Source of the DNA: Stramenopiles sp. TOSAG23-3
Taxonomy: Eukaryota
Assembly: GCA_900128585.1 (NCBI GenBank)
Contig: LT642156.1
Coordinates: 1 to 56,881, forward strand
DNA length: 56,881 nt
Direction: 5' to 3'
The notes under the pieces were generated by a model. The model had not been told where the DNA came from. It searched no databases and saw only the letters and a program-made list of their open reading frames with translations. Numbering within the stretch: position 1 is the first letter of the stretch; each line of letters begins with the position of its first letter. Made by a program: the position numbers and the translations under genes. Below, one piece after another: positions 5,322 through 55,388 of the stretch.

Positions 5322-7517
5322 TTACACACCATCTTTCTTTCTATGCACATCATCACGCATCGTTATTGCTCTCTCAACAACCCGTAAGCACGCATCCATC
5401 GAAAGCGCGCTTTCAAACGAAATAACACGCTGCTCTTGCACTTGATTTGAATCTTCAAGAATGAGTTGCAAAGTGGAATTTCGTTGCGTACTGAAACTTT
5501 GCAACGGGTTCACCTGGACCACAGTTTTGTTACCACGGATCAAATATCCATCGTTTCTGTATACCGTACTCGAATTGCTGACGGACCGGCGTGTGTCCGA
5601 AGAGTCAGCACTCATAACCGTATCGTACAAAATCATTTTCCCCCCAACCTCGCATACCATGTATTTTCGTTCCCATACTGCCCTGGACCAACACGAGCAC
5701 AAGATGGTTTCGTGCCGCTCGACCTCTACCCATTCCGCGACCGTTTCTATTTTTCCAGAAGAGCTCCGATGGGCTTGATAACCTTCAGACGCGTAAAGTG
5801 GGTTTTTTACAGAGTGACGGCCAGCTTTGTGCGTCATACCTTGACCAATACCAGCCAGCTCTGTGGTCCCCTTGAGTACTCGCATCGTGTTTTTGTCGTG
5901 TGCTATATCGACGGGGCGCATGTTGTCCCCTGCTCGTCGGCAGTGGACTTGGGCACCATGGCTGATCAAAACGTTGCATATATCCGTCCGGCCAGCCTTT
6001 GCGGCTAAATGCAGGGGCGTCTCCCCGGAAACGTTTGTCACATTGGGGAATGCGCCCGCCTCCAGAAGGAAATGAACGACGTCCGACGATTTCGACATTG
6101 CAGCACAATGTAGGGGGGTCTCGCACTTTGGATCACTAGATGCAGGGTTGTTCAGCAAAATGGCCTTTTCCACGATGGTCCTGTTCAGCATTTCCTTCGT
6201 CAGCTTTAAGTTTCCGCTTCCGACTGCCTGGTAGAATTCTTTGGTATATTTGATTCGGCGCTGTGCACGGTACTTCATGTTTTTAACTTTCATTTTGATG
6301 GTTATAAAGGTCTTGATGTTCTTCACGTTGAACGCTTGCAGGGCATGATCAACCTCATTGTCAGTTACCGTCAGCGCAATGCTGTTCCTTTTGACCATTG
6401 CCCTGGTCAACGTTTTTGCAGCACCATCCTCACCAGTGACCCAGGGGTGCAGCAATGCAGCTTTGCAGTCGATCCTCTTCGTCGGGTCGTCGTGCAGCAT
6501 CCCATCAATTAGGAGCAGAAACTGGCTGTCGTCAATCGATGAGGTTTGCGGGCATTCGCTCAATATGTTTCGACCACTTTTTCGATTTGGGTTGGCAATG
6601 GCATCGAACAACATCGGAAGGGACGCATCGTAAAAGGGGAGCTTGCCAGTCAGGCAAGACAAAAACGTAATCCCGACAGCCCACATGTCCGCCTTAAACC
6701 CGCTGTAGCCATTTTTTGGAATGTTCACACATTCCGGTGCGTAAAAATGATACGTTCCCTTGTCATCATGCAAATGAAGCATCTCTTGCTTGTTGAACAA
6801 GTTGTGAGGAGCATCGGGCTGGACAAGTTCCGACACACCAAAATCAGCGAGTTTGCAAACATTCCTGGAGGACAGCAGAATGTTTTCAGGTTTAATGTCC
6901 CTGTGGGCTATGTTCATACAATGCAAATACAGCAGCCCCCTCAAGATGTCCCTTGCGTACGACCGCAAGGTTTGCAACGGCACAAGCCCAGACTCACAGT
7001 GGGGCGATTTATAACCGCTGTCAGAAATTCGATCTAATATCTGACCTTTGCTGACATACTCCAACACTAAAAACATGGTGTGGTGGGCACGGCTCTCAAT
7101 AACCTCAAAAAGCTGGACTATGTTTGGATGGTTCAGTTTTTTCATCAACGCAATCTCCCGCCGGACCCAATCCATCGCCGATTCGCTTCCCCTTCCCTTA
7201 CTTTGTTTTGACAACACACTTTTTTTCAATATTTTCAGGGCGAAAGATTTTTTCTCCCCGTTCACCGTTCTTACGACGCGCCGCACCAGCGAAAACGCCC
7301 CGACCCCTATTGTTTCTTCTATACTGTACTGATTTAACGCCCCGGAAGACGCCGATATTTCGTTCGTGGTCAAGACCTCGCCTCTATTATGCTTTGCTAT
7401 TGCTTTCTGAAACCCTTTATCGGACGTTTTATTGATTTCAATATTCACTTGAGGCACAGAATCTTCCGTGGACAAGTGCCGGACGAGGCCCCGATTACTG
7501 TTTCCAACTTCCGACAT
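5322..7517 (-). CDS. CaMKK-like Ser/Thr kinase with ankyrin repeats and a possible C-terminal PH-like domain
   Basis: LNQY..IGVGAFSLV, FALK, REIALMKKLNHPNIVQLFEVI, HRDIKPEN, DFG, GTYHFYAPE, ADMWAVG. Ankyrin ETPLHCAA and GETPLHLAAKAG. WERKYMV...MDACLRVVERAI resembles PH. Confidence 0.9.
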   Translation of the reverse strand: MSEVGNSNRGLVRHLSTEDSVPQVNIEINKTSDKGFQKAIAKHNRGEVLTTNEISASSGALNQYSIEETIGVGAFSLVRRVVRTVNGEKKSFALKILKKSVLSKQSKGRGSESAMDWVRREIALMKKLNHPNIVQLFEVIESRAHHTMFLVLEYVSKGQILDRISDSGYKSPHCESGLVPLQTLRSYARDILRGLLYLHCMNIAHRDIKPENILLSSRNVCKLADFGVSELVQPDAPHNLFNKQEMLHLHDDKGTYHFYAPECVNIPKNGYSGFKADMWAVGITFLSCLTGKLPFYDASLPMLFDAIANPNRKSGRNILSECPQTSSIDDSQFLLLIDGMLHDDPTKRIDCKAALLHPWVTGEDGAAKTLTRAMVKRNSIALTVTDNEVDHALQAFNVKNIKTFITIKMKVKNMKYRAQRRIKYTKEFYQAVGSGNLKLTKEMLNRTIVEKAILLNNPASSDPKCETPLHCAAMSKSSDVVHFLLEAGAFPNVTNVSGETPLHLAAKAGRTDICNVLISHGAQVHCRRAGDNMRPVDIAHDKNTMRVLKGTTELAGIGQGMTHKAGRHSVKNPLYASEGYQAHRSSSGKIETVAEWVEVERHETILCSCWSRAVWERKYMVCEVGGKMILYDTVMSADSSDTRRSVSNSSTVYRNDGYLIRGNKTVVQVNPLQSFSTQRNSTLQLILEDSNQVQEQRVISFESALSMDACLRVVERAITMRDDVHRKKDGV

Positions 7518-17431: not shown

Positions 17432-18755
17432 TCCTTCAACTGGTTTGTGTTGATGGGACTAGTAAAGCAGGTGTACGCGTAAGTTGGTCAGTCAGGCACA
17501 AAATGGTCTCGTTTTTCGTTGCGGTTTCTGCATCAGCAACAGCCCACTGCCATAGCTAGCAGGATATTTTCACACGAGGTTGGAGTAAGTAATCTTGATC
17601 TAGTAGAAGAGGATGAAAATATTTTCTTGCGGTAGTTTAAAAAATACAACAAAAAAATTAATAAAAAATAATATATAATAGGACTATAATAATAATTAAA
17701 TAATAACAATTGTATGCAGGACCGACGGAGGAGTTAGTAGTGAGAGTAGTCGATATATAATACAAGGACTACGTATTTAATACCGGTGACAGTAATAAGT
17801 CCTCGTAGACGACTATGAAGCAAGCTGATCTCGATCTTTCCTGATCGTAGTACCGTAGCGACAAAAACAACTGTACGTACATTGGAGATATGTGTCCATA
17901 CAGAGACTACGTACCTTACAGGAACCCAGGTACAGGTACCTGGTGTTTAAAAAGACTAAATACCTGGTATACCGATAATAGACGACTAGACTAGTAACAA
18001 TAAGTCAATTATGTTTCGTATAAATAATAATACAATGAAATAAATGCATGGCTGCCTATCCTACAGTCCTCGTAGGTTTAATAAATTGGAACCAAATAGT
18101 CGTCTATAAGCTAATAAGACTAGAGAGGCCTACGTAATATTAATATACTATAATTTAAAATCTGAACCGCCCAAAGCAACTCGACGTTTCTAATTTTATT
18201 ATATAACACAGCATTATATATATTACCTATCAAAATTATACTAAAAACTATTTACATTACATAATTGTAACAAAAACTTAACTCTCAGGCTCATAGCATA
18301 GCTCTTAGGAACGTTGTCTTTAATTTCCTTAGTCTATTTAGTCAGTCTAATATAAAAAAACAACAACCGTTACCTTTTCTTCTATTTACATATACACAGT
18401 ATTGCGTATTGGTAAATAAATATTGAAAAAAAAAGGAACGAGAGAGAAGAATGAATTATTTTGAAAAAACGTTGATAGGAATACAAAGTACAACACTACA
18501 AATATAAGTACTAACCCATTTTGATTAAAAAAATCAGATGAGAGAGTGGGGTGGACGACCGACCTCCTCTGACTGAAGTGTTTTTTGTTTTTTTACCACA
18601 GTTTTCTATGGAGTTCGAAGTCCTGGCCCAACTTGTGAACACGAAAATGAAGGGACCAAATTTATTATTTGTTATTTAGATTGTCTAGATTTTACGCACG
18701 ACAAAAGAATACACTATTTACAAGGAACAGATTGCACCAGAAATATAAGTGGATC

Positions 18756-20961: not shown

Positions 20962-21406
20962 TACAAGGTACGTGGAACCTGGTACGGTACCAGGGACACA
21001 ACAAAATAAATAACAGCCATTATTATTAATAAGCTTTTGTTTTTGATTTTTTATAAGTTTATTCTATACTATCTCCTCTCAGATGGGTCCAAATGACAAA
21101 ATTATTATTATGTGAGTGAAAATAAATTTTATTATTTCGTATTTTTTGAACCAAACCATAGCAATAATAACAACGGAATGGGGTCGAAGAATGTTGTTGT
21201 TCTGTTTTAAGAAATATATAATACCAACGGAAATCATGAAACAAAATGTTTTGTTGGGATAATCTACGATGTAAATGTTTCTGTTTTTCCACAAGTACAA
21301 AAACTAAATGTAACTACATGCATAGATGTAACTACATGTATACGTAGAGGAAGCGGAAACTACATTTTCATTCATCATCCGGAGTTTGAGGGATCGGGAT
21401 AGAAGA

Positions 21407-24400
21407 ATGGACGATTCCCAAATTCGCTCGCTGTTGCGAGAGACGGAAAGAGACGAAATCGCGATCGACCGCATCCTTTTAGTATCGAAGCAAAAGAAAT
21501 TTTGTTTTCAAGAGATAGTGTTTGGGCAAAACGTAAAATTGGATTCCTTAGTACTTATATTGCAAGGTAGTATTAGTCTCTCTAAAGACGTTAAAGCATC
21601 GGTTGATGAATGCCTTTCGCAGACTGCCGCAGACAGACGGTCACGCGAGAGGAAGCATCGACATTCAAAAATTTACTTACACTCCATTTCCCAAGGGCAT
21701 TTTTTGGGAGCGCACGAGCTAGCCTTTTCTAAACGAACAAAAGTGTCGGCAATTTCTTCTTGCCAAACAGGGGAAACGATATGTTTGATGATCCCGCGCC
21801 AGGAAACACCACTTGTACACAAAGTCTTGTTGAAACAATTTGCCTTGTCAAGTCAAATCTCTTACAAATCATTCCAGGAATGTGCAATTAGGTTGAAACC
21901 GAGATGTTACAACGCAGGGGAAATGATAATTAGACAAGGCGACGTTGGAACGAAGTACTGCTTGATAGCTGAAGGTAGTGTGATTGTTCTTAGTACCAGC
22001 GATTGTTTGCCCCCTTTCGAAGACTGCAAAATCCTGGAAGATATGCGCCAGCACTTCAGTTTCAACGAATTGTGCAAAATTCCAAGGCTCGGAACGTTCG
22101 GAGAACATAGTTTACTGTCTTCCTTTACCGCCGACGAGCGTGACCGTAGCACGCCCAACGACAAGACATTAGAGACGACAAATGCTTGCGTATTTGCAAA
22201 CACCGACGTGGACGTACTGTACCTGGAGAAGGAGGATTTCCTTGATATTCTATCTAGAAGAACATCATTGCTGCAGTTGATATCGTCCAACGATAAGACT
22301 AGGCACGACACGCATCTTAAGAAGCGCCAGGTGAGCGACGAGGGACGCCTTGAAAGCGCGGTCTCAGAAAGACTAAAGCAGCCGACCAATCGAAAAGTGA
22401 AAGTAAGAAGAAAGAGTCAAGTGACAAAATTAAGGGATAACGTTATGAAAATAAACGAATACATTGTCAAGGAATCACTGGGCACCGGCAGTTATGGAGA
22501 GGTCTACCAAGTGGTCAAAAAAAACGAAGTGTATGCGATGAAAATAATTAAGAAAAGTATGATGCTACGAAAAGATCGATTTCGCCTCGTCCGTAATTCT
22601 AGTGGTATGATGGGAGATGTGAAGCGCGAGGTCGCCATCATGAAAACGTTAAACCATGAAAATATTATCAAGCTTTTCGAAGTAATAGACGACCCAAAAG
22701 CGAAGAACATGTATATGATATTGGAATATGCGGGCGCAGGGTCATTAGAAGCATTGTTGGGAAAGTGTGAAATGGGTCGAAGCAGAAGTATTTTCCGAGG
22801 CATTACAAAAGGGGTAGGGTACTTGCATTGCAACGGTATTGTGCATCGGGACTTAAAGCCAGAGAATATTTTGCTCAACGCTTTAGGCGTGGTGAAGATC
22901 GCAGATTTTGGCGTGTCGCAAATATTGAGAGACGGGGTTCACGTAAAAGTGAAAGGGACCCCAGCGTACATGTCGCCGGAACTGTTTTTGCGGGACGACG
23001 AGCACTCGGACCATTGGGCCGGGTCGCTTACTGGCGAAAACAACAAGCAAAGCAAGCGGGCAATGATCACAGAATCATTCGTTTCTTCCGATGTGTGGGC
23101 AATGGGCTGCATTCTTTACGCCCTTTTGGTGGGCTATCCACCGTATGGCGCAGACAAACTGGATGAAATCCAGTTCCGAGAGAAATTATTTCACGACCCC
23201 TTGAATATTCCTACCAATTTGAACGATATTCATTTGAAGGATTTGTTAGTGGGGCTGTTGCAGAAAAATTACAAACAGCGTTATTCTATGAAAGCAATAA
23301 TGACGCATGAATGGCTGACCGAAGAGGGACTCTTCCCTCTGTTTCGAAACACACGAGAACTGGACTTTTATTCCACGGTGCTCATGAATCCAAAAGAACC
23401 GACCAGAGAAGAAATTTCGTTTGCCATCACTCTAAGAATTGTTCACCACTTAAAACTTTGGAAAAAACGGGCACTGTCGAATGTAAAGGAACGAGAGGAG
23501 CAAACGGACAGGAAAGGCCCCACTTCGGTGCTTTTCAAATGTTTCCCAAAGCTTAAGTCATTGTTCAAAGGACGAAAGTACAAAATTCACCCAAAAGTGG
23601 CATTGTCCCTGGCCGAGGAGCAAGTTGATGAGAAGAAAATGCCCGACGTTCCAAAACCAGGCAACCTGACTGTTGTTGCAAGCGATGAGAACATAGAAAT
23701 ACCTAACTCGAGAGAGGCGGGCCAAAAAGAGCATACAGTCGAGAACGGTCACGTTCAAAATGATTATGCCACCACGAATTCAGATTCCGCAAGCGCTTCA
23801 GACCTTGACTCAGACTCGGACTATGGTTCGGTCGAAGATATTTTAGACGGAGATGATGCAATAGATTCCATTTTCGCTTTAAGTGACGATGCGACAGTGG
23901 GTGGTGTATCCGTGCACGAGCCATCGGAGCAGTTGAACAATACCATGCGCATGAAATCCAGCGCTTCCAGCGTTGATATACAGCGGAAAATGTCTTCCAA
24001 TCTACGACTTCTCCAGAAGAACTCGAACGTGAACTTGGGAATATCATATGGCATGCACTCGGAGAGGGGGAGGCCACTATATCAAGAAGACTGCATTGTC
24101 GCGATTCCAGATTTGCGATTGAAGAAGAATGAAAATGGCCAACACGCGTACTTTGCAGTATTTGATGGGCATGGCGGCCAGGACGTCTCCCAATTTTTAT
24201 CCAACAACTTTCACGTCCGTCTCGCTGCCATGTTTGACCCTAATGTAGACGAGGGAATTTCAGAAACCTTCGTCAGCCTTGACAAAGAAATACTGGAGAA
24301 TTTTTTGGACAAGATACCCGACAACAGCATAAATGACCTGTGCAGCCCCTCCAATAGCAGGCGGTCTATCAGCCCGTACAGCCTGCTGGACAGTTCGGGT

Positions 24401-25045
24401 TCTACGGGAACAATTTTGATGGTCGGACAAATTAGTGGGTCCAAATCCCTACTGCTGAAATTATCGTGGGTCGGCGATAGCAGAGCCGTACTGTGCAAGA
24501 ACGGGAATGCCATCGCATTGACCACCGACCACCGCGTTTCAAACGAGAGCGAACGAGAAAGAATAGAAAAACTGGAAGGTCACGATACGGCCAACGGACG
24601 CTTGGACGGATCACTGATGATTACGAGAGGATTTGGGGACCTAAGGCACAAGTTGAATTTTGTGAGCACCGTTGCCAAGGACAAGTATAATGTGGCCATG
24701 GCGACTATCCAAGAGGCAATGACGTCTCCCTCTACGACGCAAGAGAAACGAAAGGGGTTGTCAAATGCGGTTCAGCGCGATGCATTAATCTGCACCCCAT
24801 CTGTATCGAACACGCAAACCCAAGACGAGGACGAATTTATCATGCTAGCATCCGACGGCTTGTTCGACGTAATGACCAACCAAAATGCGGTGAATATCGT
24901 CCGAAGCCACCTGGAAAATAGTGGCAAACTGAACGACGCAGCGGAAGCTGTCACAAACGCAGCCGTCGAACTCGGTAGCACCGACAATGTTTCTGTTGTC
25001 ATTGTTGCATTTAACTTGTCGCTTACGCCATTGGATAATAAATAA
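21407..25045 (+). CDS. Fusion protein: two cNMP-binding-like domains + CaMKK-like kinase + PP2C phosphatase
   Basis: cNMP: YNAGEMIIRQGDVGTKYCLIAEGSV..FGEHSLL..LEKEDF. Kinase: GTGSYGEV, YAMK, HRDLKPEN, DFG, GTPAYMSPE. PP2C: YQED, VFDGHGG, GST, VGDSRAV, TRGFGD, LASDGLFD, TDNVSV. Confidence 0.92.
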   Translation: MDDSQIRSLLRETERDEIAIDRILLVSKQKKFCFQEIVFGQNVKLDSLVLILQGSISLSKDVKASVDECLSQTAADRRSRERKHRHSKIYLHSISQGHFLGAHELAFSKRTKVSAISSCQTGETICLMIPRQETPLVHKVLLKQFALSSQISYKSFQECAIRLKPRCYNAGEMIIRQGDVGTKYCLIAEGSVIVLSTSDCLPPFEDCKILEDMRQHFSFNELCKIPRLGTFGEHSLLSSFTADERDRSTPNDKTLETTNACVFANTDVDVLYLEKEDFLDILSRRTSLLQLISSNDKTRHDTHLKKRQVSDEGRLESAVSERLKQPTNRKVKVRRKSQVTKLRDNVMKINEYIVKESLGTGSYGEVYQVVKKNEVYAMKIIKKSMMLRKDRFRLVRNSSGMMGDVKREVAIMKTLNHENIIKLFEVIDDPKAKNMYMILEYAGAGSLEALLGKCEMGRSRSIFRGITKGVGYLHCNGIVHRDLKPENILLNALGVVKIADFGVSQILRDGVHVKVKGTPAYMSPELFLRDDEHSDHWAGSLTGENNKQSKRAMITESFVSSDVWAMGCILYALLVGYPPYGADKLDEIQFREKLFHDPLNIPTNLNDIHLKDLLVGLLQKNYKQRYSMKAIMTHEWLTEEGLFPLFRNTRELDFYSTVLMNPKEPTREEISFAITLRIVHHLKLWKKRALSNVKEREEQTDRKGPTSVLFKCFPKLKSLFKGRKYKIHPKVALSLAEEQVDEKKMPDVPKPGNLTVVASDENIEIPNSREAGQKEHTVENGHVQNDYATTNSDSASASDLDSDSDYGSVEDILDGDDAIDSIFALSDDATVGGVSVHEPSEQLNNTMRMKSSASSVDIQRKMSSNLRLLQKNSNVNLGISYGMHSERGRPLYQEDCIVAIPDLRLKKNENGQHAYFAVFDGHGGQDVSQFLSNNFHVRLAAMFDPNVDEGISETFVSLDKEILENFLDKIPDNSINDLCSPSNSRRSISPYSLLDSSGSTGTILMVGQISGSKSLLLKLSWVGDSRAVLCKNGNAIALTTDHRVSNESERERIEKLEGHDTANGRLDGSLMITRGFGDLRHKLNFVSTVAKDKYNVAMATIQEAMTSPSTTQEKRKGLSNAVQRDALICTPSVSNTQTQDEDEFIMLASDGLFDVMTNQNAVNIVRSHLENSGKLNDAAEAVTNAAVELGSTDNVSVVIVAFNLSLTPLDNK

Positions 25046-25403
25046 TGTTGCAGAAACACCAACGGTGGAGAAATGGACGTATAGCCAGTGATAACGTGAA
25101 CATGACGTGGCCAAAATTTGAATTTGTTTATATTATATAGAAATAGCAAGAAGAGGGAGGAACCGACGATTATACTGTGTTTGATTATACAGGTACGTAC
25201 CACCAGGTATTATTATATTATACCAGGTACCAGGTACCAGGTATAATACCTGTACCTGGTACCTGTACTGAGGAGAGTTCTAATAAATATAAAATTAATT
25301 ATTTTTTTGATGATGATGAACGAATGATTTTTCATCATTATTTTTTTCTTCTTTCTTTTTTCTTTTCTTTTGTTGACTTCAAATAGTTTGCAAGAATCAC
25401 GTT

Positions 25404-25407
<4 letters not shown>

Positions 25408-25436
<29 letters not shown>
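25408..25436. repeat. (AT)n microsatellite
   Basis: Uninterrupted atatat run. Confidence 0.95.
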
Positions 25437-25440
<4 letters not shown>

Positions 25441-25598
25441 TAACAATCATAGTTGCAACAAGTTTATATACAAAGGGAGACAAGCGAATACCGCCATTTA
25501 ATGCACCCGCTACTTTTACGGAATTTGCTTTGGAAGGATCTACCAGAAGGCTTGCAAGGCTCCGGTCTCCCGTTGAACGTGAACGCGTGTTAACCGAG

Positions 25599-26936
25599 AT
25601 GAAAAGTACTATCACTGGCAGCCGTAGGGCTGCCGACAGGAAGCGGTCTTCCGGTATCTTGAATTTAATATGCTCGCCGGCAGAGGGCGGTGGGTTTGGC
25701 AACCAAATAGCAATTCTGTCCATTTTGTTCTTTATTATAATTGTGGCTTTGGTGATCGCTTTGGTCATAACCGCGACAGAAATAAATGTTGTAGAAAAAA
25801 AGCACGCGGCCTCAAACGCGACTGTCGGCGGCATAACTTCCGATTGCGATACAACGGTTTTTTCCCGACGCTTCGACATGGGCGACAGGAAGATTATAAA
25901 AACTGTGGCGTTGATCTCATCTACATTGTCGTTTATAGGATCTTTGTTCATCGTCGTATCGTGGATGCTTTTTGCCCGCCTGAGGACGTTTCCTTTCCGC
26001 CTCGTACTGTATTTATCCATCGCGGACATTGGCAACAGTTTGGCCACCATTCTGGCCATAGCAGAAAAAGGTATGGATGAGCCCAACGGCTGTGTCAAAA
26101 CGAGCGTCTTGTGTTCGATTTCAGGATTCCTCATGCAATTTTTCGAAGTTGCCAGTTTTTTTTGGATTTTGAATATTTCGATCAACCTGTACCTTATTCT
26201 GGTAAAAAAGGTTGGCAATGCCATATTTGGTTTTGAGAAAACTTACCATCTCTTGGCTTGGGGGGTCCCGCTCATCTTGGCTGTTATCCCAGTCTTTTTA
26301 GACGCATATGGGGATGCCGGGAGTTGGTGTTGGATAAAGGAGCAATTCCCTGCTTTGCGAATGGTTCTTTTGTACTGCCCTCTGATAATAATTATGATCG
26401 CAGCATCGGTAAACTTCGGCCAAAGCAGTTTAAACATTCGCCATGGCAGCGGCAAAGCGGCCAGAATGGAGTCCAGCCGAATCAAATTCCGTTTGCACCT
26501 GTACATAGTCGTTTTTGTTCTGGTGAACTTCTTTTCCATTTTGAATCGCATTCATGGTTTGGTGGAGATAGATAACCCAAACTTCACTTTGCATTTGTTG
26601 CAAGCGCTTGTCTCACCCTTGCAAGGGTTTGCAAATGCGGTCATATACGGACTGAATAAAGCTGTCGTTAGTCACTACAAGGTAGCCTGCACTGACCTCT
26701 GCCGCTGCGATCGATCCAAAGCTCGTCCAAGCGCCGAAGACGGGATCACCGACGCCGCAGAAGTTGCCGAGAAGACAGAAGACGAAGAAGAGACCGGTGA
26801 CAAATCTTCCACTAACGATTTAGTGAGCAACGCGAACGTCTCGCTAGAGATCCGTTCGCCGTGGGAAGGTATGCGCAGTAGTAAAATCAACAAGGAGACG
26901 TCGGGAGTTGCGATGCCAGAAACGTTTCAAGGATAA
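25599..26936 (+). CDS. 7TM GPCR of the Dictyostelium cAMP receptor / plant GCR1-like family
   Basis: LSFIGSLFIV, FRLVLYLSIAD, CSISGFLMQFFEVASFFW, YHLLAWGVP, YGDAGSWCWI, PLQGFANAVIYG. First ATG at 25599; an extra hydrophobic helix precedes TM1. Confidence 0.88.
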   Translation: MKSTITGSRRAADRKRSSGILNLICSPAEGGGFGNQIAILSILFFIIIVALVIALVITATEINVVEKKHAASNATVGGITSDCDTTVFSRRFDMGDRKIIKTVALISSTLSFIGSLFIVVSWMLFARLRTFPFRLVLYLSIADIGNSLATILAIAEKGMDEPNGCVKTSVLCSISGFLMQFFEVASFFWILNISINLYLILVKKVGNAIFGFEKTYHLLAWGVPLILAVIPVFLDAYGDAGSWCWIKEQFPALRMVLLYCPLIIIMIAASVNFGQSSLNIRHGSGKAARMESSRIKFRLHLYIVVFVLVNFFSILNRIHGLVEIDNPNFTLHLLQALVSPLQGFANAVIYGLNKAVVSHYKVACTDLCRCDRSKARPSAEDGITDAAEVAEKTEDEEETGDKSSTNDLVSNANVSLEIRSPWEGMRSSKINKETSGVAMPETFQG

Positions 26937-52164: not shown

Positions 52165-52363
52165 GAAGCTAAATTTAATTACTTATAAATAACAGCCAAT
52201 TTTCTTGTTGTTAGTTTTTATAAAAAGTATTTAGTAAGTGAATGTCTATATTTTTTTATTACTTTATCTTAAACTTTTATACAGTTCGCATTACATTAAT
52301 TTTAATTACATCATTAGTTTCTTTAATTTTAATTACTTAAATAACAGCCAATTTTCTTGTTTT
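52165..52363 (+). repeat. Two copies of the dispersed element (52165-52209 and 52328-52363)
   Basis: The second copy is an exact 33-mer overlapping the TAA stop (52362-52364) of the minus-strand GPCR. Confidence 0.92.
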
Positions 52364-55300
52364 AGTTTATAGATATGTTTGCATCTGGAACATTCTTGCG
52401 GAGATACACGGGGTTTCTTACCTCAACAACAGGGATTTCAACTTCAGAGACCTCAGTTGTACTTTCGGAACTAGTCGACAACAGAAACACCTTTGGCACA
52501 GGTATGCGCTTGCAAACCCCGTTTACAACACTGCCAATACTTTCTGATACAGTTTCTGCAAGTTTTGGGAAGTAATAAAATACCAAAAGCACGGTAAAGA
52601 TCCACCACAAGGCCATTCCCCCCCATAAATCTATGATGGCCGGGTCGTTGTCTATCTGAATTGCTTCCAAGCTCAACAAGCAGGGTATGACAAGGCTCAT
52701 AACGGCGTTGTTAATTGATAGCCCGACTGAAGTGCTTGATCTAAATTCTTTTTTAACTTTTCTGTTTTGAATGGAGAGAAACGCTCCCCAGAGTAATAGT
52801 CCATATTCTGCGATTGCTAGTATGGCACCGCCATATGCACGGTCTTCCTCTAAGTTATATCCCGTGCACCTAGCTTGCTCGTAAAAAAGGTCATTCCTGC
52901 TGGAGTATATTTTTCTCGGGCCCTGTGTATTTTGCTCAACGACCGTCCAAACGATCAAATAAATAGTGACGAATGTAATTAAAAGTATTGTGTTCCGAAG
53001 CATGTTATGGGCTTCCTTCTTCCCCCTTTTCGGATCAAACGATTTTAGCGATTTAGTGCTCAGCAAATGGTTGACCGCATTTAAAATCGCAAACAATGGG
53101 ACCAACGTCATGAATATGCCTAGATGATGACAAAATCTTGAAGCTATACAATGAGCCTTGCCCGACGCTTCGTCCTCCATTGACGGCTCTGTCAGTAGGA
53201 AAAAAATATGGAGGTACTCTAAAGCGGCTCCTGCAAGAATTACCAAGGTGTATTTTGGCTGCGTTTTCTTGATTTGCTTCTTTTCCTTGTTCAGCCACAC
53301 CCAAATCGCGGCAAAGATACAAAATACCATCATGGTAAGGGACAAGACTTGAAACGCCAAGTACAAGTGAACTACAGCGTCCACTCGTGTTTTAAACCGA
53401 ACGACGATGGGGCAGACGTACTTGCTGGGCAAAAAGTGCATCCAGTCCGTGAGGATAGAATTAAACTCTTCATCGTTAATTATTTCACATACCGCGTGGT
53501 TGACCAAATATTGTTCAACTTGCGCAGCCTTTGTGCCGTCGACTACACCCCCTTTTAATTCTAGAAATCGCGAGAAGAATTTATCAAGGAACCTGTTGTC
53601 TATTTTTAAGTTTTGGAGAAAATTGTAGACAGGAGTTGGAACAGACGGTTTGTTGTACACAGCTTTGTCCAGTCCCTTCCCGTCAAGCTGCAAGCGAGTG
53701 GTAACAACTTTGTCCAGATTATCACTCGCCCAATCGCAATTTGCATCTTTGTACAATGGGGAATCCATGAGTGTTTTGTTCTTTTCAATCACGCAGAGTT
53801 TTTCAAACGCGTTGCCCCTTGCGATTCCACACCGCCCTGATGGGGGTGGAAATCTGACTTTCACCAATTCATATTTCCCGTTCTTAACCGTTTTGGATTG
53901 GTAAAACAGCAATTCTGGAACCCAGTGCCATATCATTATGGCTTCATCATTTTCGACTGCTGCTTCGTACACACGCTCGGTATCCTGAAGGTCAATACCC
54001 CCACGTTTAGTCCCATTGCCTCCATCAAAACCCATTTTGATGTTATTGAGGTGAAATATCATCTTGCTGTAGGTCGACCAATCACAGTAATCCAGGATAC
54101 AAGTTGTCCCCCGGCAAGTTTTCGGGTTCTTCGTACAGTTATGCAGTCCATTCGCAGCAAAGTATCCGCCATACAATACGAGGGAGTGGTTCTTTACATA
54201 GTACTGTTCTTTCTCGCCATTCAAATGGTTTGGCACCGGACAAAGCCACTTTTGATTGTTCGAAGAATAAAACTCGTCACAGTATTCTGCCCACCGAACA
54301 GGCCGTTTAAATAACTGAGCGTTCCTTGCCCTGTACCGCTCTCGGTAACCACGGTACGACGCCAACTCCGGGTGCTGATCCAGGACCCATTTTGGAACCA
54401 TTAAGCCGATTTCTCCCGTAACGTGGGAAGGAAACGCTCTGGACAATGGCAACCCGGTCGCTTTATCCACCTTTTTACCAACGACGGCATTCAGGGTGTC
54501 CCACACCTCCATCATAACATCGACGCATTCGTTTGCTCGGGATTTATCCAAATCGAAACATTTTCGAATGCTCTCCAAGTCATACGCCCCACCCGCATGC
54601 AAATACAAAGGTTTTGCCATATAATCTTCATAAAATCCCTTCGACACGGTTGCTCGTTTCCAGCCGTCTTCCTCTTCCCGTGCATATTTGAGAATGTATT
54701 TCGCAGGATACTTTAGAATTTCCACCATTAAAATTTGGGCAACTGAACCCAGGACTTGTGCAGACTGCCAGTTTTGTGGCAACATATTTACCGAGTTGTT
54801 TTGATAAATTGACGACCCTGTATCGTCGGTGCACTGATGGTCGTTGTCGCCTATGCACGCGCGGCAGTTGCCTTCGCTGGTATCAGCTTTTTCGCTAGAG
54901 CATTGCTTTATGTTGGGGTTTGCTTTCCCCGGAACCCGAGGAGGGAAACACGCCCGAAGTTTGTCCAATACTTTGAACTTCGATTTATCCAAACAACCAC
55001 CGCGGAAAACGTTGAGGCACTTTCTTTGCACCGTGTCGCACTGCGGAGGAAAGTGCATCTTCAAACCTGATTCTTTTGTAAACACTTGGCAGTCTTCATC
55101 TTTGTCACAAGGACAATGGTTACAATTATTATTGGCATCGCATTCTTTCGGCAAACAGGATGTAGCATATTGTAGGCATAGTAAACAAAACAGCACGACT
55201 GCTGGAACGACCCTCCAGCGTTTGCCAGGCGCCTCGGGCGATCTTGCCATTCTTCTGAAGCCTAAAAACCAGCAGCAATGTTTGCTTCTTACCAGAAAGG

Positions 55301-55388
55301 GAGAGAGGAGTAGCCAAGATGCCCACTTAAATGGATCTGAAACATTCAGAGATTGTTGAAAACATGATTTTGAAGATTTTTCTTTCAT
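52362..55388 (-). CDS. Class C-like (GABA-B-type 7TM) GPCR with a periplasmic-binding-protein-like ectodomain
   Basis: KKQIKKTQPKYTLVILAG, C..SRFCHHLG, IYLIVWTVV, LLLWGAFLSIQNRKV..EFRSS..VGLSINN, YYFPK. The likely start is 55250 (MARSPE..., followed by a signal peptide). Confidence 0.82.
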   Translation of the reverse strand: MKEKSSKSCFQQSLNVSDPFKWASWLLLSPFLVRSKHCCWFLGFRRMARSPEAPGKRWRVVPAVVLFCLLCLQYATSCLPKECDANNNCNHCPCDKDEDCQVFTKESGLKMHFPPQCDTVQRKCLNVFRGGCLDKSKFKVLDKLRACFPPRVPGKANPNIKQCSSEKADTSEGNCRACIGDNDHQCTDDTGSSIYQNNSVNMLPQNWQSAQVLGSVAQILMVEILKYPAKYILKYAREEEDGWKRATVSKGFYEDYMAKPLYLHAGGAYDLESIRKCFDLDKSRANECVDVMMEVWDTLNAVVGKKVDKATGLPLSRAFPSHVTGEIGLMVPKWVLDQHPELASYRGYRERYRARNAQLFKRPVRWAEYCDEFYSSNNQKWLCPVPNHLNGEKEQYYVKNHSLVLYGGYFAANGLHNCTKNPKTCRGTTCILDYCDWSTYSKMIFHLNNIKMGFDGGNGTKRGGIDLQDTERVYEAAVENDEAIMIWHWVPELLFYQSKTVKNGKYELVKVRFPPPSGRCGIARGNAFEKLCVIEKNKTLMDSPLYKDANCDWASDNLDKVVTTRLQLDGKGLDKAVYNKPSVPTPVYNFLQNLKIDNRFLDKFFSRFLELKGGVVDGTKAAQVEQYLVNHAVCEIINDEEFNSILTDWMHFLPSKYVCPIVVRFKTRVDAVVHLYLAFQVLSLTMMVFCIFAAIWVWLNKEKKQIKKTQPKYTLVILAGAALEYLHIFFLLTEPSMEDEASGKAHCIASRFCHHLGIFMTLVPLFAILNAVNHLLSTKSLKSFDPKRGKKEAHNMLRNTILLITFVTIYLIVWTVVEQNTQGPRKIYSSRNDLFYEQARCTGYNLEEDRAYGGAILAIAEYGLLLWGAFLSIQNRKVKKEFRSSTSVGLSINNAVMSLVIPCLLSLEAIQIDNDPAIIDLWGGMALWWIFTVLLVFYYFPKLAETVSESIGSVVNGVCKRIPVPKVFLLSTSSESTTEVSEVEIPVVEVRNPVYLRKNVPDANISIN

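Follow-up and report, generated by a model that had tools for sequence, protein, structure and literature searches.

We describe here a gene in a 56,881-nucleotide stretch of DNA from Stramenopiles sp. TOSAG23-3 (contig LT642156.1, positions 1 to 56,881; hereafter the window) that encodes two cyclic nucleotide-binding (CNB) folds, a CaMKK-type protein kinase and a PP2C phosphatase in one chain. The encoded protein is a divergent, compact variant of a catalogued, biochemically uncharacterised family. We favour the reading, which we consider fairly probable as a whole, that it is a bifunctional fusion in which the CNB domains are without canonical cyclic nucleoside monophosphate (cNMP) binding and a helix after the kinase may serve as a Ca2+/calmodulin input.

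The fusion gene and its family

The coding sequence (21407..25045, + strand) is a single exon encoding 1212 amino acids followed by a stop codon. It lies in an open reading frame (ORF) on the + strand that is stop-free over 21386..25045 and has its first ATG at 21407, a start with which the N-termini of two homologues, P0003 and P0004, agree (alignment A1). Both homologues are collinear with the TOSAG23-3 protein (42% identity over 99% of the query for P0003 and 36% over 98% for P0004), and neither a frameshift nor a stop is found across the 3.6 kb of the fusion. Translation confirms the one uninterrupted ORF described in an earlier annotation made from the letters only (the sequence-only reading), and the positions given there for its parts match our Pfam scan, which detected Pkinase at residues 352-637 (E 1.3e-56) and PP2C at 881-1195 (E 2.5e-49); cNMP_binding was confined to 166-196 (32.7 bits, cut-off 27.5). 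In a separate assembly (run X15), a single 10,347-nt contig covers 21000-25313 and differs from the ORF by five substitutions and no indel. Four of these are synonymous, of which one lies in CNB-A and two lie in the PP2C, the fifth is the conservative L905V, and the indels of the contig cluster outside the ORF (21078, 21142 and 25219-25270). The chimeric assembly that the sequence-only reading had named as a danger was therefore not borne out. The ORF is conserved under purifying selection, and near-identical sequence is present in seawater metagenomes and metatranscriptomes from eight studies. Moreover, contigs of RNA libraries, which come from three studies and are at least 99% alike, fall on CNB-A, on both catalytic domains, on the linker between CNB-B and kinase and on the long one between kinase and PP2C, and show no joints; these contigs are short (151-450 nt), and the parts they leave uncovered are uninformative. 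The gene, from an uncultured marine protist, is genuine and looks expressed.

The architecture is not new, and the family to which the protein belongs has been catalogued since 2010. At least 33 of the 120 matches listed carry all three Pfam families, and the order cNMP-kinase-PP2C was confirmed in 23 homologues, mostly from oomycetes (14 of 19 and 9 of 14 in two scanned sets); the remaining 10 scanned proteins comprise seven with kinase-PP2C and no cNMP domain, one cNMP-kinase, one kinase-cNMP-receiver and one N-terminal fragment. Among the named members, the genera Saprolegnia, Aphanomyces, Phytophthora, Pythium, Globisporangium, Albugo, Peronospora and Nothophytophthora are represented. Two members, P0315 and P0271, are labelled Batrachochytrium salamandrivorans, a chytrid fungus, at NCBI, and every other named member is from an oomycete; either contamination of that assembly or a wider distribution of the family may account for the label. 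In the entries of Table S1 of the 2010 Phytophthora infestans kinome, PITG_17359 is listed as a CAMK of 1859 aa with the catalytic domain scored as ok and the annotation "PP2C, cNMPbinding 2x", its best match at kinase.com being CaMKK2 and its closest family OTHER/CAMKK/META (PMC3019232). The 2024 oomycete phosphatome gives the domains of Ps568223 in its Table S3 as CAP 161-288, CAP 292-399, STKc 493-751 and PPM 1389-1744 (PMC10925823), and passages of that study term such kinase-phosphatase proteins bifunctional and report high mRNA levels in zoospores and cysts (PMC10925823). PITG_17359 is constitutively expressed according to an excerpt of a further report (PMC5322657).

The TOSAG23-3 protein has the domain order of this family, and its kinase and PP2C are placed with those of other members. 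With the oomycete fusions (PITG_17359, Ps568223 and the Saprolegnia and Aphanomyces proteins named "CAMKK/CAMKK-META protein kinase") it shares the domain order, the kinase clade and an acidic linker motif, and the PP2Cs of both are found among the kinase-fused PP2Cs. It differs from them in being 1212 aa long rather than 1224-1920 aa, at an identity of ~28-32%, and its clade starts directly at CNB-A, whereas the oomycete fusions carry a long low-complexity N-terminal extension. In alignment A1, the oomycete members P0006, P0007, P0008, P0021, P0025, P0023 and P0009 mostly start with MGQ, which presumably fits the N-myristoylation consensus. Non-canonical cassettes, a calmodulin-type motif, inserts in kinase and PP2C and a displaced PP2C arginine, on the other hand, set the TOSAG23-3 protein apart from the oomycete fusions.

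The protein also differs from the plant-type fusion, in which the order is PP2C-CNB-CNB-kinase and the kinase is of the AGC/PKG type, as opposed to CNB-CNB-kinase-PP2C with a CaMKK-type kinase. Rice PKG and the TOSAG23-3 protein nevertheless both hold a PP2C, two CNBs and a kinase in one chain. Plant-type fusions occur in oomycetes as separate genes (PITG_08304, PITG_09375, Ps544740 and Ps354449), and no plant-type protein was found among the 13 kinase-fused proteins checked from the search with the PP2C region. Because domain order and kinase type differ and the plant-type fusions are separate genes in oomycetes, our data support the proposal of the sequence-only reading that this fusion was assembled independently of the plant one.

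The kinase domain (22460..23317, + strand; residues 352-637) is of the CaMKK/GRIK type and has all catalytic motifs (G359/G361/G364, K379, E408, H480-R481-D482, N487, D500-F501-G502, P524-E525, D562 and R625). These are invariant in a 24-sequence family alignment of the TOSAG23-3 protein, P0003, P0004 and 21 other members, and R481 is nearly so. A PDB search with the kinase ranked CaMKK2 (150.8 bits) above CaMKK1 (132), AMPK (125.9) and LKB1 (~112), PKG was absent from the best 60 PDB matches, and the Pfam scan of the protein contained no AGC C-terminal family. The named kinase-only relatives are plant GRIK1 and CaMKK-named proteins of several protists and animals. Animal CaMKK1 and CaMKK2 and plant GRIK1 are thus the closest solved or named kinase domains, and they have the EVIDDP motif in common with the TOSAG23-3 kinase, but CaMKK and GRIK stand alone as kinases of ~400-550 aa and have neither CNB nor PP2C. 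They act upstream of CaMKI/IV, AMPK and SnRK1 on the activation-loop threonine.

The placement of the kinase was further assessed in a tree of 69 rows rooted on AGC kinases, obtained by a quick search and with Shimodaira-Hasegawa-like approximate likelihood-ratio test (SH-aLRT) values as the only support. In this tree, the TOSAG23-3 kinase forms a clade with P0003, P0004 and P0122 (SH-aLRT 99) that is sister (91) to 11 oomycete cNMP-kinase-PP2C proteins (99) and their allies P0053/57/59 and P0046/P0197. The resulting 20-row clade (SH-aLRT 91), the named CaMKK/GRIK proteins and a clade of ochrophyte kinase-PP2C proteins (100) make up one group (89), apart from BRSK/MARK-type (CAMKL) and AGC kinases, and the three AGC outgroup rows form a clade of their own (SH-aLRT 100). 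By its sequence, the kinase is therefore CaMKK-type and not AGC/PKG-like: the PDB ranking, the named relatives and the tree agree with the sequence-only reading on both the type and the intact motifs, and the grouping with PKG or the plant fusion against which it had warned is not seen, the kinase sitting in the CaMKK/GRIK group. A clade-specific insert of ~24-28 aa lies between APE and DxWxxG (22988..23071, + strand; residues 528-555 in alignment A1) and is predicted to be disordered (predicted local distance difference test, pLDDT, <50 at 529-549).

Related arrangements were encountered among the kinase homologues. P0123, P0143 and P0152 are CaMKK-like kinases of ~530-650 aa with a CNB after the kinase, in the place taken in CaMKK by the calmodulin-binding segment; Mesostigma viride is the source of one, two of the clusters hold 120 and 304 sequences, and all three are placed with named CaMKK/GRIK proteins in the kinase tree. 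P0095 combines a CaMKK-like kinase with cNMP_binding and a response-regulator receiver domain, and P0046 has cNMP_binding and a CaMKK-like kinase followed by receiver-like sequence.

The PP2C (PPM) domain (24047..24991, + strand; residues 881-1195) retains its metal-binding motifs, as proposed by the sequence-only reading and confirmed by Pfam and the 24-sequence alignment (E894-D895, D920-G921-H922-x-G924, G1023-D1024, D1150-G1151 and D1193-N1194); the ED, DGHGG, GDSR, DG and DN motifs and the His are invariant across the family. Its best solved relatives are PPM1B, plant PP2C 37 and PPM1A (E 2e-25 to 3e-23). A clade-specific insert of ~44 aa follows RGFGDLRHK (24653..24784, + strand; residues 1083-1126 in alignment A1), partly helical and with pLDDT <50 at 1106-1126. 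In a PP2C tree of 62 rows, a split separates all 37 kinase-fused PP2Cs from the 25 non-fused ones, and the TOSAG23-3 clade (99) is found with P0316 (85) and with other cNMP-kinase-PP2C members (83). Since the kinase and PP2C trees agree, the TOSAG23-3 protein belongs to one fusion family. An affinity of the PP2C to CaM kinase phosphatases (PPM1E) was considered and rejected as unsupported: PPM1B, PP2C 37 and PPM1A outscore the CaM kinase phosphatase 4jnd in the PDB search, and PPM1E does not group with the fused PP2Cs in the tree. That PPM1E came out top among the named non-fused matches is explained by short PP2Cs having fallen outside the length filter.

Kinase and phosphatase are joined by a linker (23480..24016, + strand; residues 692-870) that is predicted to be disordered, with pLDDT <50 throughout. 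It contains the acidic linear motif SDYSDVExDVDVDxTFxDL (23807..23875, + strand; residues 801-823), which is common to the oomycete members and was not found in the P0316-P0323/P0271 group. A full-length model (residues 1-1200) reached a pLDDT of 70.9 and shows four folded modules.

The tandem CNB module and its cassettes

The CNB domains are weak from sequence alone, both in Pfam and in the PDB sequence search. An AlphaFold model of residues 1-345 (pLDDT 81.5, predicted template modelling score, pTM, 0.73; 18 aligned sequences) was matched by Foldseek to the tandem CNB-A/B of PKA-R and PKG over ~310 columns (best E 1.8e-17). This match leads us to conclude that, as modelled, the N-terminus consists of two CNB folds, so that the two cNMP-binding-like domains recognised by the sequence-only reading hold up as folds. 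CNB-A (21407..21826, + strand; residues ~1-140, with a disordered insert at ~66-86) is delimited by the AlphaFold2 model, by Foldseek and by collinearity with the oomycete CNB-A, and CNB-B (21839..22261, + strand; residues ~145-285) by the Pfam match at 166-196, PDB sequence matches at 137-207, AlphaFold2 and Foldseek. A long helix (22262..22375, + strand; residues 286-323), assigned by DSSP on both models and with pLDDT dropping toward its end, would join CNB-B to the kinase.

The cassettes that contact the cyclic nucleotide are non-canonical in both domains. In the 24-sequence alignment, the other 21 family members have canonical cassettes, with 19-21 of 21 conforming, a family trait from which the TOSAG23-3 protein departs in lacking the Glu and the conserved Arg of CNB-A and the Arg of CNB-B. 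In the CNB-A cassette region (21695..21760, + strand; residues 97-118), which reads G101-A-H-E104, the +1 Glu after the Gly is replaced in the TOSAG23-3 protein, P0003 and P0004 (hereafter its clade) by A/A/C, as opposed to E in 20 of the 21 others. At the +3 Ala position the clade has E/E/E against A17/V3/Y1, and at the Arg column it has K/Q/Y in alignment A3 and T/L/T in A1 against R19/H2. In the CNB-B cassette region (22091..22201, + strand; residues 229-265), FGE is kept and the Arg has become T258; this column is T in all three clade sequences and R in all 21 others. The clade also has a CNB-B cassette insertion of 8-16 residues, which in the TOSAG23-3 protein is 16 residues long and of low pLDDT. 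P0242, a fragment and the fourth member of the clade, shows the same cassette features, including T at the CNB-B Arg column. A search with the N-terminal 344 aa returned only 75 matches at E <= 1e-3 among 1.84 billion representatives, mostly to residues ~135-200, together with P0242, and was too shallow to widen the clade, which therefore stays at four sequences.

The corresponding positions in PKA RI-alpha are A202/R209 and A326/R333, according to passages of a study on kinetoplastid PKA-R (PMC10959531). As related there, the Arg is polar and the Ala is Glu in the kinetoplastid proteins, the Glu clashes with the cyclic phosphate and purine nucleosides are bound instead (PMC10959531); the two substitutions, Arg to polar and Ala to Glu, are stated in the same passages to abolish cAMP binding (PMC10959531). 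Kinetoplastid PKA-R (PDB 6FLO and 6HYI; cAMP-independent and purine-nucleoside-binding) is among the top structural matches of the tandem CNB fold, and T258 in CNB-B and E104 in CNB-A parallel its Arg-to-polar and Ala-to-Glu changes. The large CNB-B cassette insertion, by contrast, belongs to the TOSAG23-3 protein and not to kinetoplastid PKA-R. Because cyclic-phosphate cassette residues are missing from both CNBs, we infer that canonical cAMP/cGMP binding was lost in this clade. The protein is thus probably not a canonical cNMP sensor, and the designation as such in the sequence-only reading is doubtful.

Just N-terminal of the kinase, in a confidently modelled strand region, the protein carries RRKS at ~22406-22417 (residues 334-337), with RRHS in P0003; this could be an autophosphorylation or pseudosubstrate site.

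Regulatory readings of the fusion protein

A second clade-specific feature is found directly after the kinase. The segment at 23414..23476 (+ strand; residues 670-690), a predicted helix, has a net charge of +5 and a 1-5-8-14 pattern of hydrophobic residues (F672, L676, V679 and W685), and it sits where the metazoan CaMKKs of our set carry a basic segment ending in RKRSF. In CaMKK, the basic segment after the kinase is autoinhibitory and binds calmodulin, and its calmodulin motif follows a 1-16 pattern. The TOSAG23-3 segment differs from it in its 1-5-8-14 pattern and is ~5 residues shorter. All three sequences of the clade (the TOSAG23-3 protein, P0003 and P0004) have the basic 1-5-8-14 motif, and the 21 other family members all lack it, so that loss of the cassettes and the calmodulin-type motif co-occur in 3/3 clade sequences and 0/21 others. 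This co-occurrence is suggestive, as read from the alignment, and control of the protein by calmodulin is possible on the strength of the motif.

In the working model that we propose, one chain would add phosphate to, and remove it from, the same targets. By analogy with CaMKK and GRIK, the targets would most likely be the activation-loop threonine of CAMK-, AMPK- or SnRK1-type kinases. How kinase and phosphatase are balanced would be decided by the regulatory parts, a scheme borrowed from rice PKG, for which cGMP raises kinase and lowers PP2C activity as summarised in the parts of a commentary on Shen et al. (2019) that describe the enzyme (PMC11638329). The CNB pair of the clade, without canonical cAMP/cGMP binding, may be a ligand-free regulatory module or the sensor of another small ligand, and the clade's own basic 1-5-8-14 helix may now provide a Ca2+/calmodulin input in its place, similar to that of animal CaMKK. 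A complete exchange of inputs in this marine clade, in which the CNBs abandoned cyclic nucleotides and the calmodulin-type helix came to set the balance of CaMKK-like and PP2C activities on the same activation-loop sites, is a bolder proposal that we consider unlikely. If true, it would amount to a natural replacement of the sensor on a bifunctional kinase/phosphatase, with canonical cNMP-sensing oomycete sisters available for comparison.

Since the architecture is not new, the value of the protein lies in offering a comparative handle rather than in a discovery. Placed together in one chain under a ligand-binding module, the CaMKK-type kinase and the PP2C could set the phosphorylation of a substrate by the ratio of their activities. 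Between the TOSAG23-3 clade and the oomycete members the scaffold is the same, with contacts to the cyclic nucleotide removed and a calmodulin-type motif added, and the comparison could reveal how an enzyme of this design trades one regulatory input for another.

Several observations, together with those raised under the alternatives below, weigh against the bifunctional, calmodulin-responsive reading that we favour. The sequence-only reading had described a basic amphipathic helix after the kinase, of which the basic charge and the 1-5-8-14 hydrophobic residues stand, whereas the amphipathicity is unremarkable, its hydrophobic moment lying at the 72.7th percentile within the protein. The helix itself is predicted at 667-701 with low confidence (pLDDT 46-56), the definition of the calmodulin-type motif is matched four times across the window's 17 large ORFs (12,587 residues), and 4.8% of shuffled versions of the protein reach its two motif matches. 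As the sequences that share the clade traits are closely related and form a single small clade, these traits count as one evolutionary event. Furthermore, the arrangement of the domains relative to each other is not confidently predicted (pTM 0.38 for the full-length model), and the split that unites the kinase-fused PP2Cs is supported only at 57. The kinetoplastid pattern is matched in part, with CNB-A lacking the +1 ribose-binding Glu and CNB-B having Ser at +3; because neither CNB has the full pattern, nucleoside binding would be at best possible. No RNA-library contig bridges two domains in the three studies, and RNA libraries can contain DNA, so that a single transcript is no more than likely for the fusion gene. 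Finally, a literature search that took in few subscription journals found no enzymology or genetics on any family member. The sequence-only reading had asked whether the architecture was already characterised or widespread, and the answer is divided: it is widespread, with 23 homologues and tabulation since 2010, and no biochemistry was found by which it could be called characterised.

One alternative is that the sensor, and perhaps the phosphatase, have decayed, leaving a constitutive or calmodulin-regulated CaMKK-like kinase on which CNB and PP2C serve as scaffold or docking modules. Both cassettes are degenerate, several of the clade-specific inserts are disordered, and the scarcity of matches to the N-terminal region would agree with such decay; a docking role has been proposed for an inactive domain of plant-type fusions in the section of the 2010 kinome that deals with them (PMC3019232). 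In the PP2C, moreover, the Arg five residues before ED, which is R in all 21 others, is replaced by Pro in the TOSAG23-3 protein, where the preceding residue is an Arg, and by Ser and Ala in P0003 and P0004, respectively. We take this Arg to contact the substrate phosphate, based on work on PPM1A, and its displacement or absence in the clade means that phosphatase efficiency may be reduced. The metal-binding residues and the His of the PP2C are all invariant, however, and the CNB folds are confidently modelled outside the inserts. The cassette-like regions are conserved within the clade and not random, and the synonymous allelic differences (four of the five, in CNB-A and PP2C among others) also speak against decay, which we hold to be rather improbable.

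Still less credible, in our judgement, is a writer/eraser enzyme, newly and independently assembled, that has a functional cAMP/cGMP sensor and integrates Ca2+/calmodulin as well. The two CNB folds, the above-threshold Pfam match, the calmodulin-type motif and the canonical cassettes of the 21 other members fit such a sensor. CNB-B also retains F231-G232-E233 and the conserved Ala A260. In CNB-A, alignments A1 and A3 differ by a shift of 1-2 columns and the Arg column has a basic neighbour (R110/K/K), so that some phosphate contact in this domain is possible. On the other side, the CNB-B Arg is absent from 3/3 clade sequences and from P0242, and the CNB-B cassette is interrupted by 16 residues. 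CNB-A is without its ribose-binding Glu and has Glu at the Ala position, for which a clash is reported in the passages on kinetoplastid PKA-R (PMC10959531), and the architecture is neither new nor rare. An artefact, whether by chimeric assembly or by read-through of neighbouring kinase and PP2C genes, could draw on the low-complexity, predicted disordered linker of 180 residues and on the missing kinase-PP2C bridge among RNA contigs, but it is exceedingly improbable given the one-piece X15 contig without indel in the ORF, the collinearity of P0003 and P0004 over 98-99% of the length, the 23 homologues with the same order, the linker motif common to oomycete members and the 3.6 kb without stop or frameshift.

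Genomic surroundings

The window is gene-dense and contains long single-exon genes of eukaryotic signalling and housekeeping types. Immediately beyond the fusion gene, 485 bases after its stop codon, lies a gene for a seven-transmembrane receptor of the Dictyostelium cAMP-receptor type (25530-26936, + strand; Dicty_CAR, E 1.4e-24). We considered this cAMP-receptor-type G-protein-coupled receptor as a functional partner and dropped it, as adjacency in a eukaryote is no evidence. On its - strand, the window also encodes a kinase with ankyrin repeats (5322-7517) and a 7tm_3 receptor (52362-55388).

Short palindromic repeats rich in GGTACC flank the fusion gene in intergenic DNA (20965-20995 and 25190-25270) and are also present at 17935, 41503 and 43670. 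The sequence CCAGGTACC occurs five times in the window, where 0.13 would be expected, each of the five sites falls between ORFs of at least 250 aa, and contigs of another run break or vary exactly at the GGTACC-rich repeats. In addition, a (TA)n microsatellite is located at 25411-25436, in the intergenic DNA that separates the fusion gene from the receptor gene downstream.

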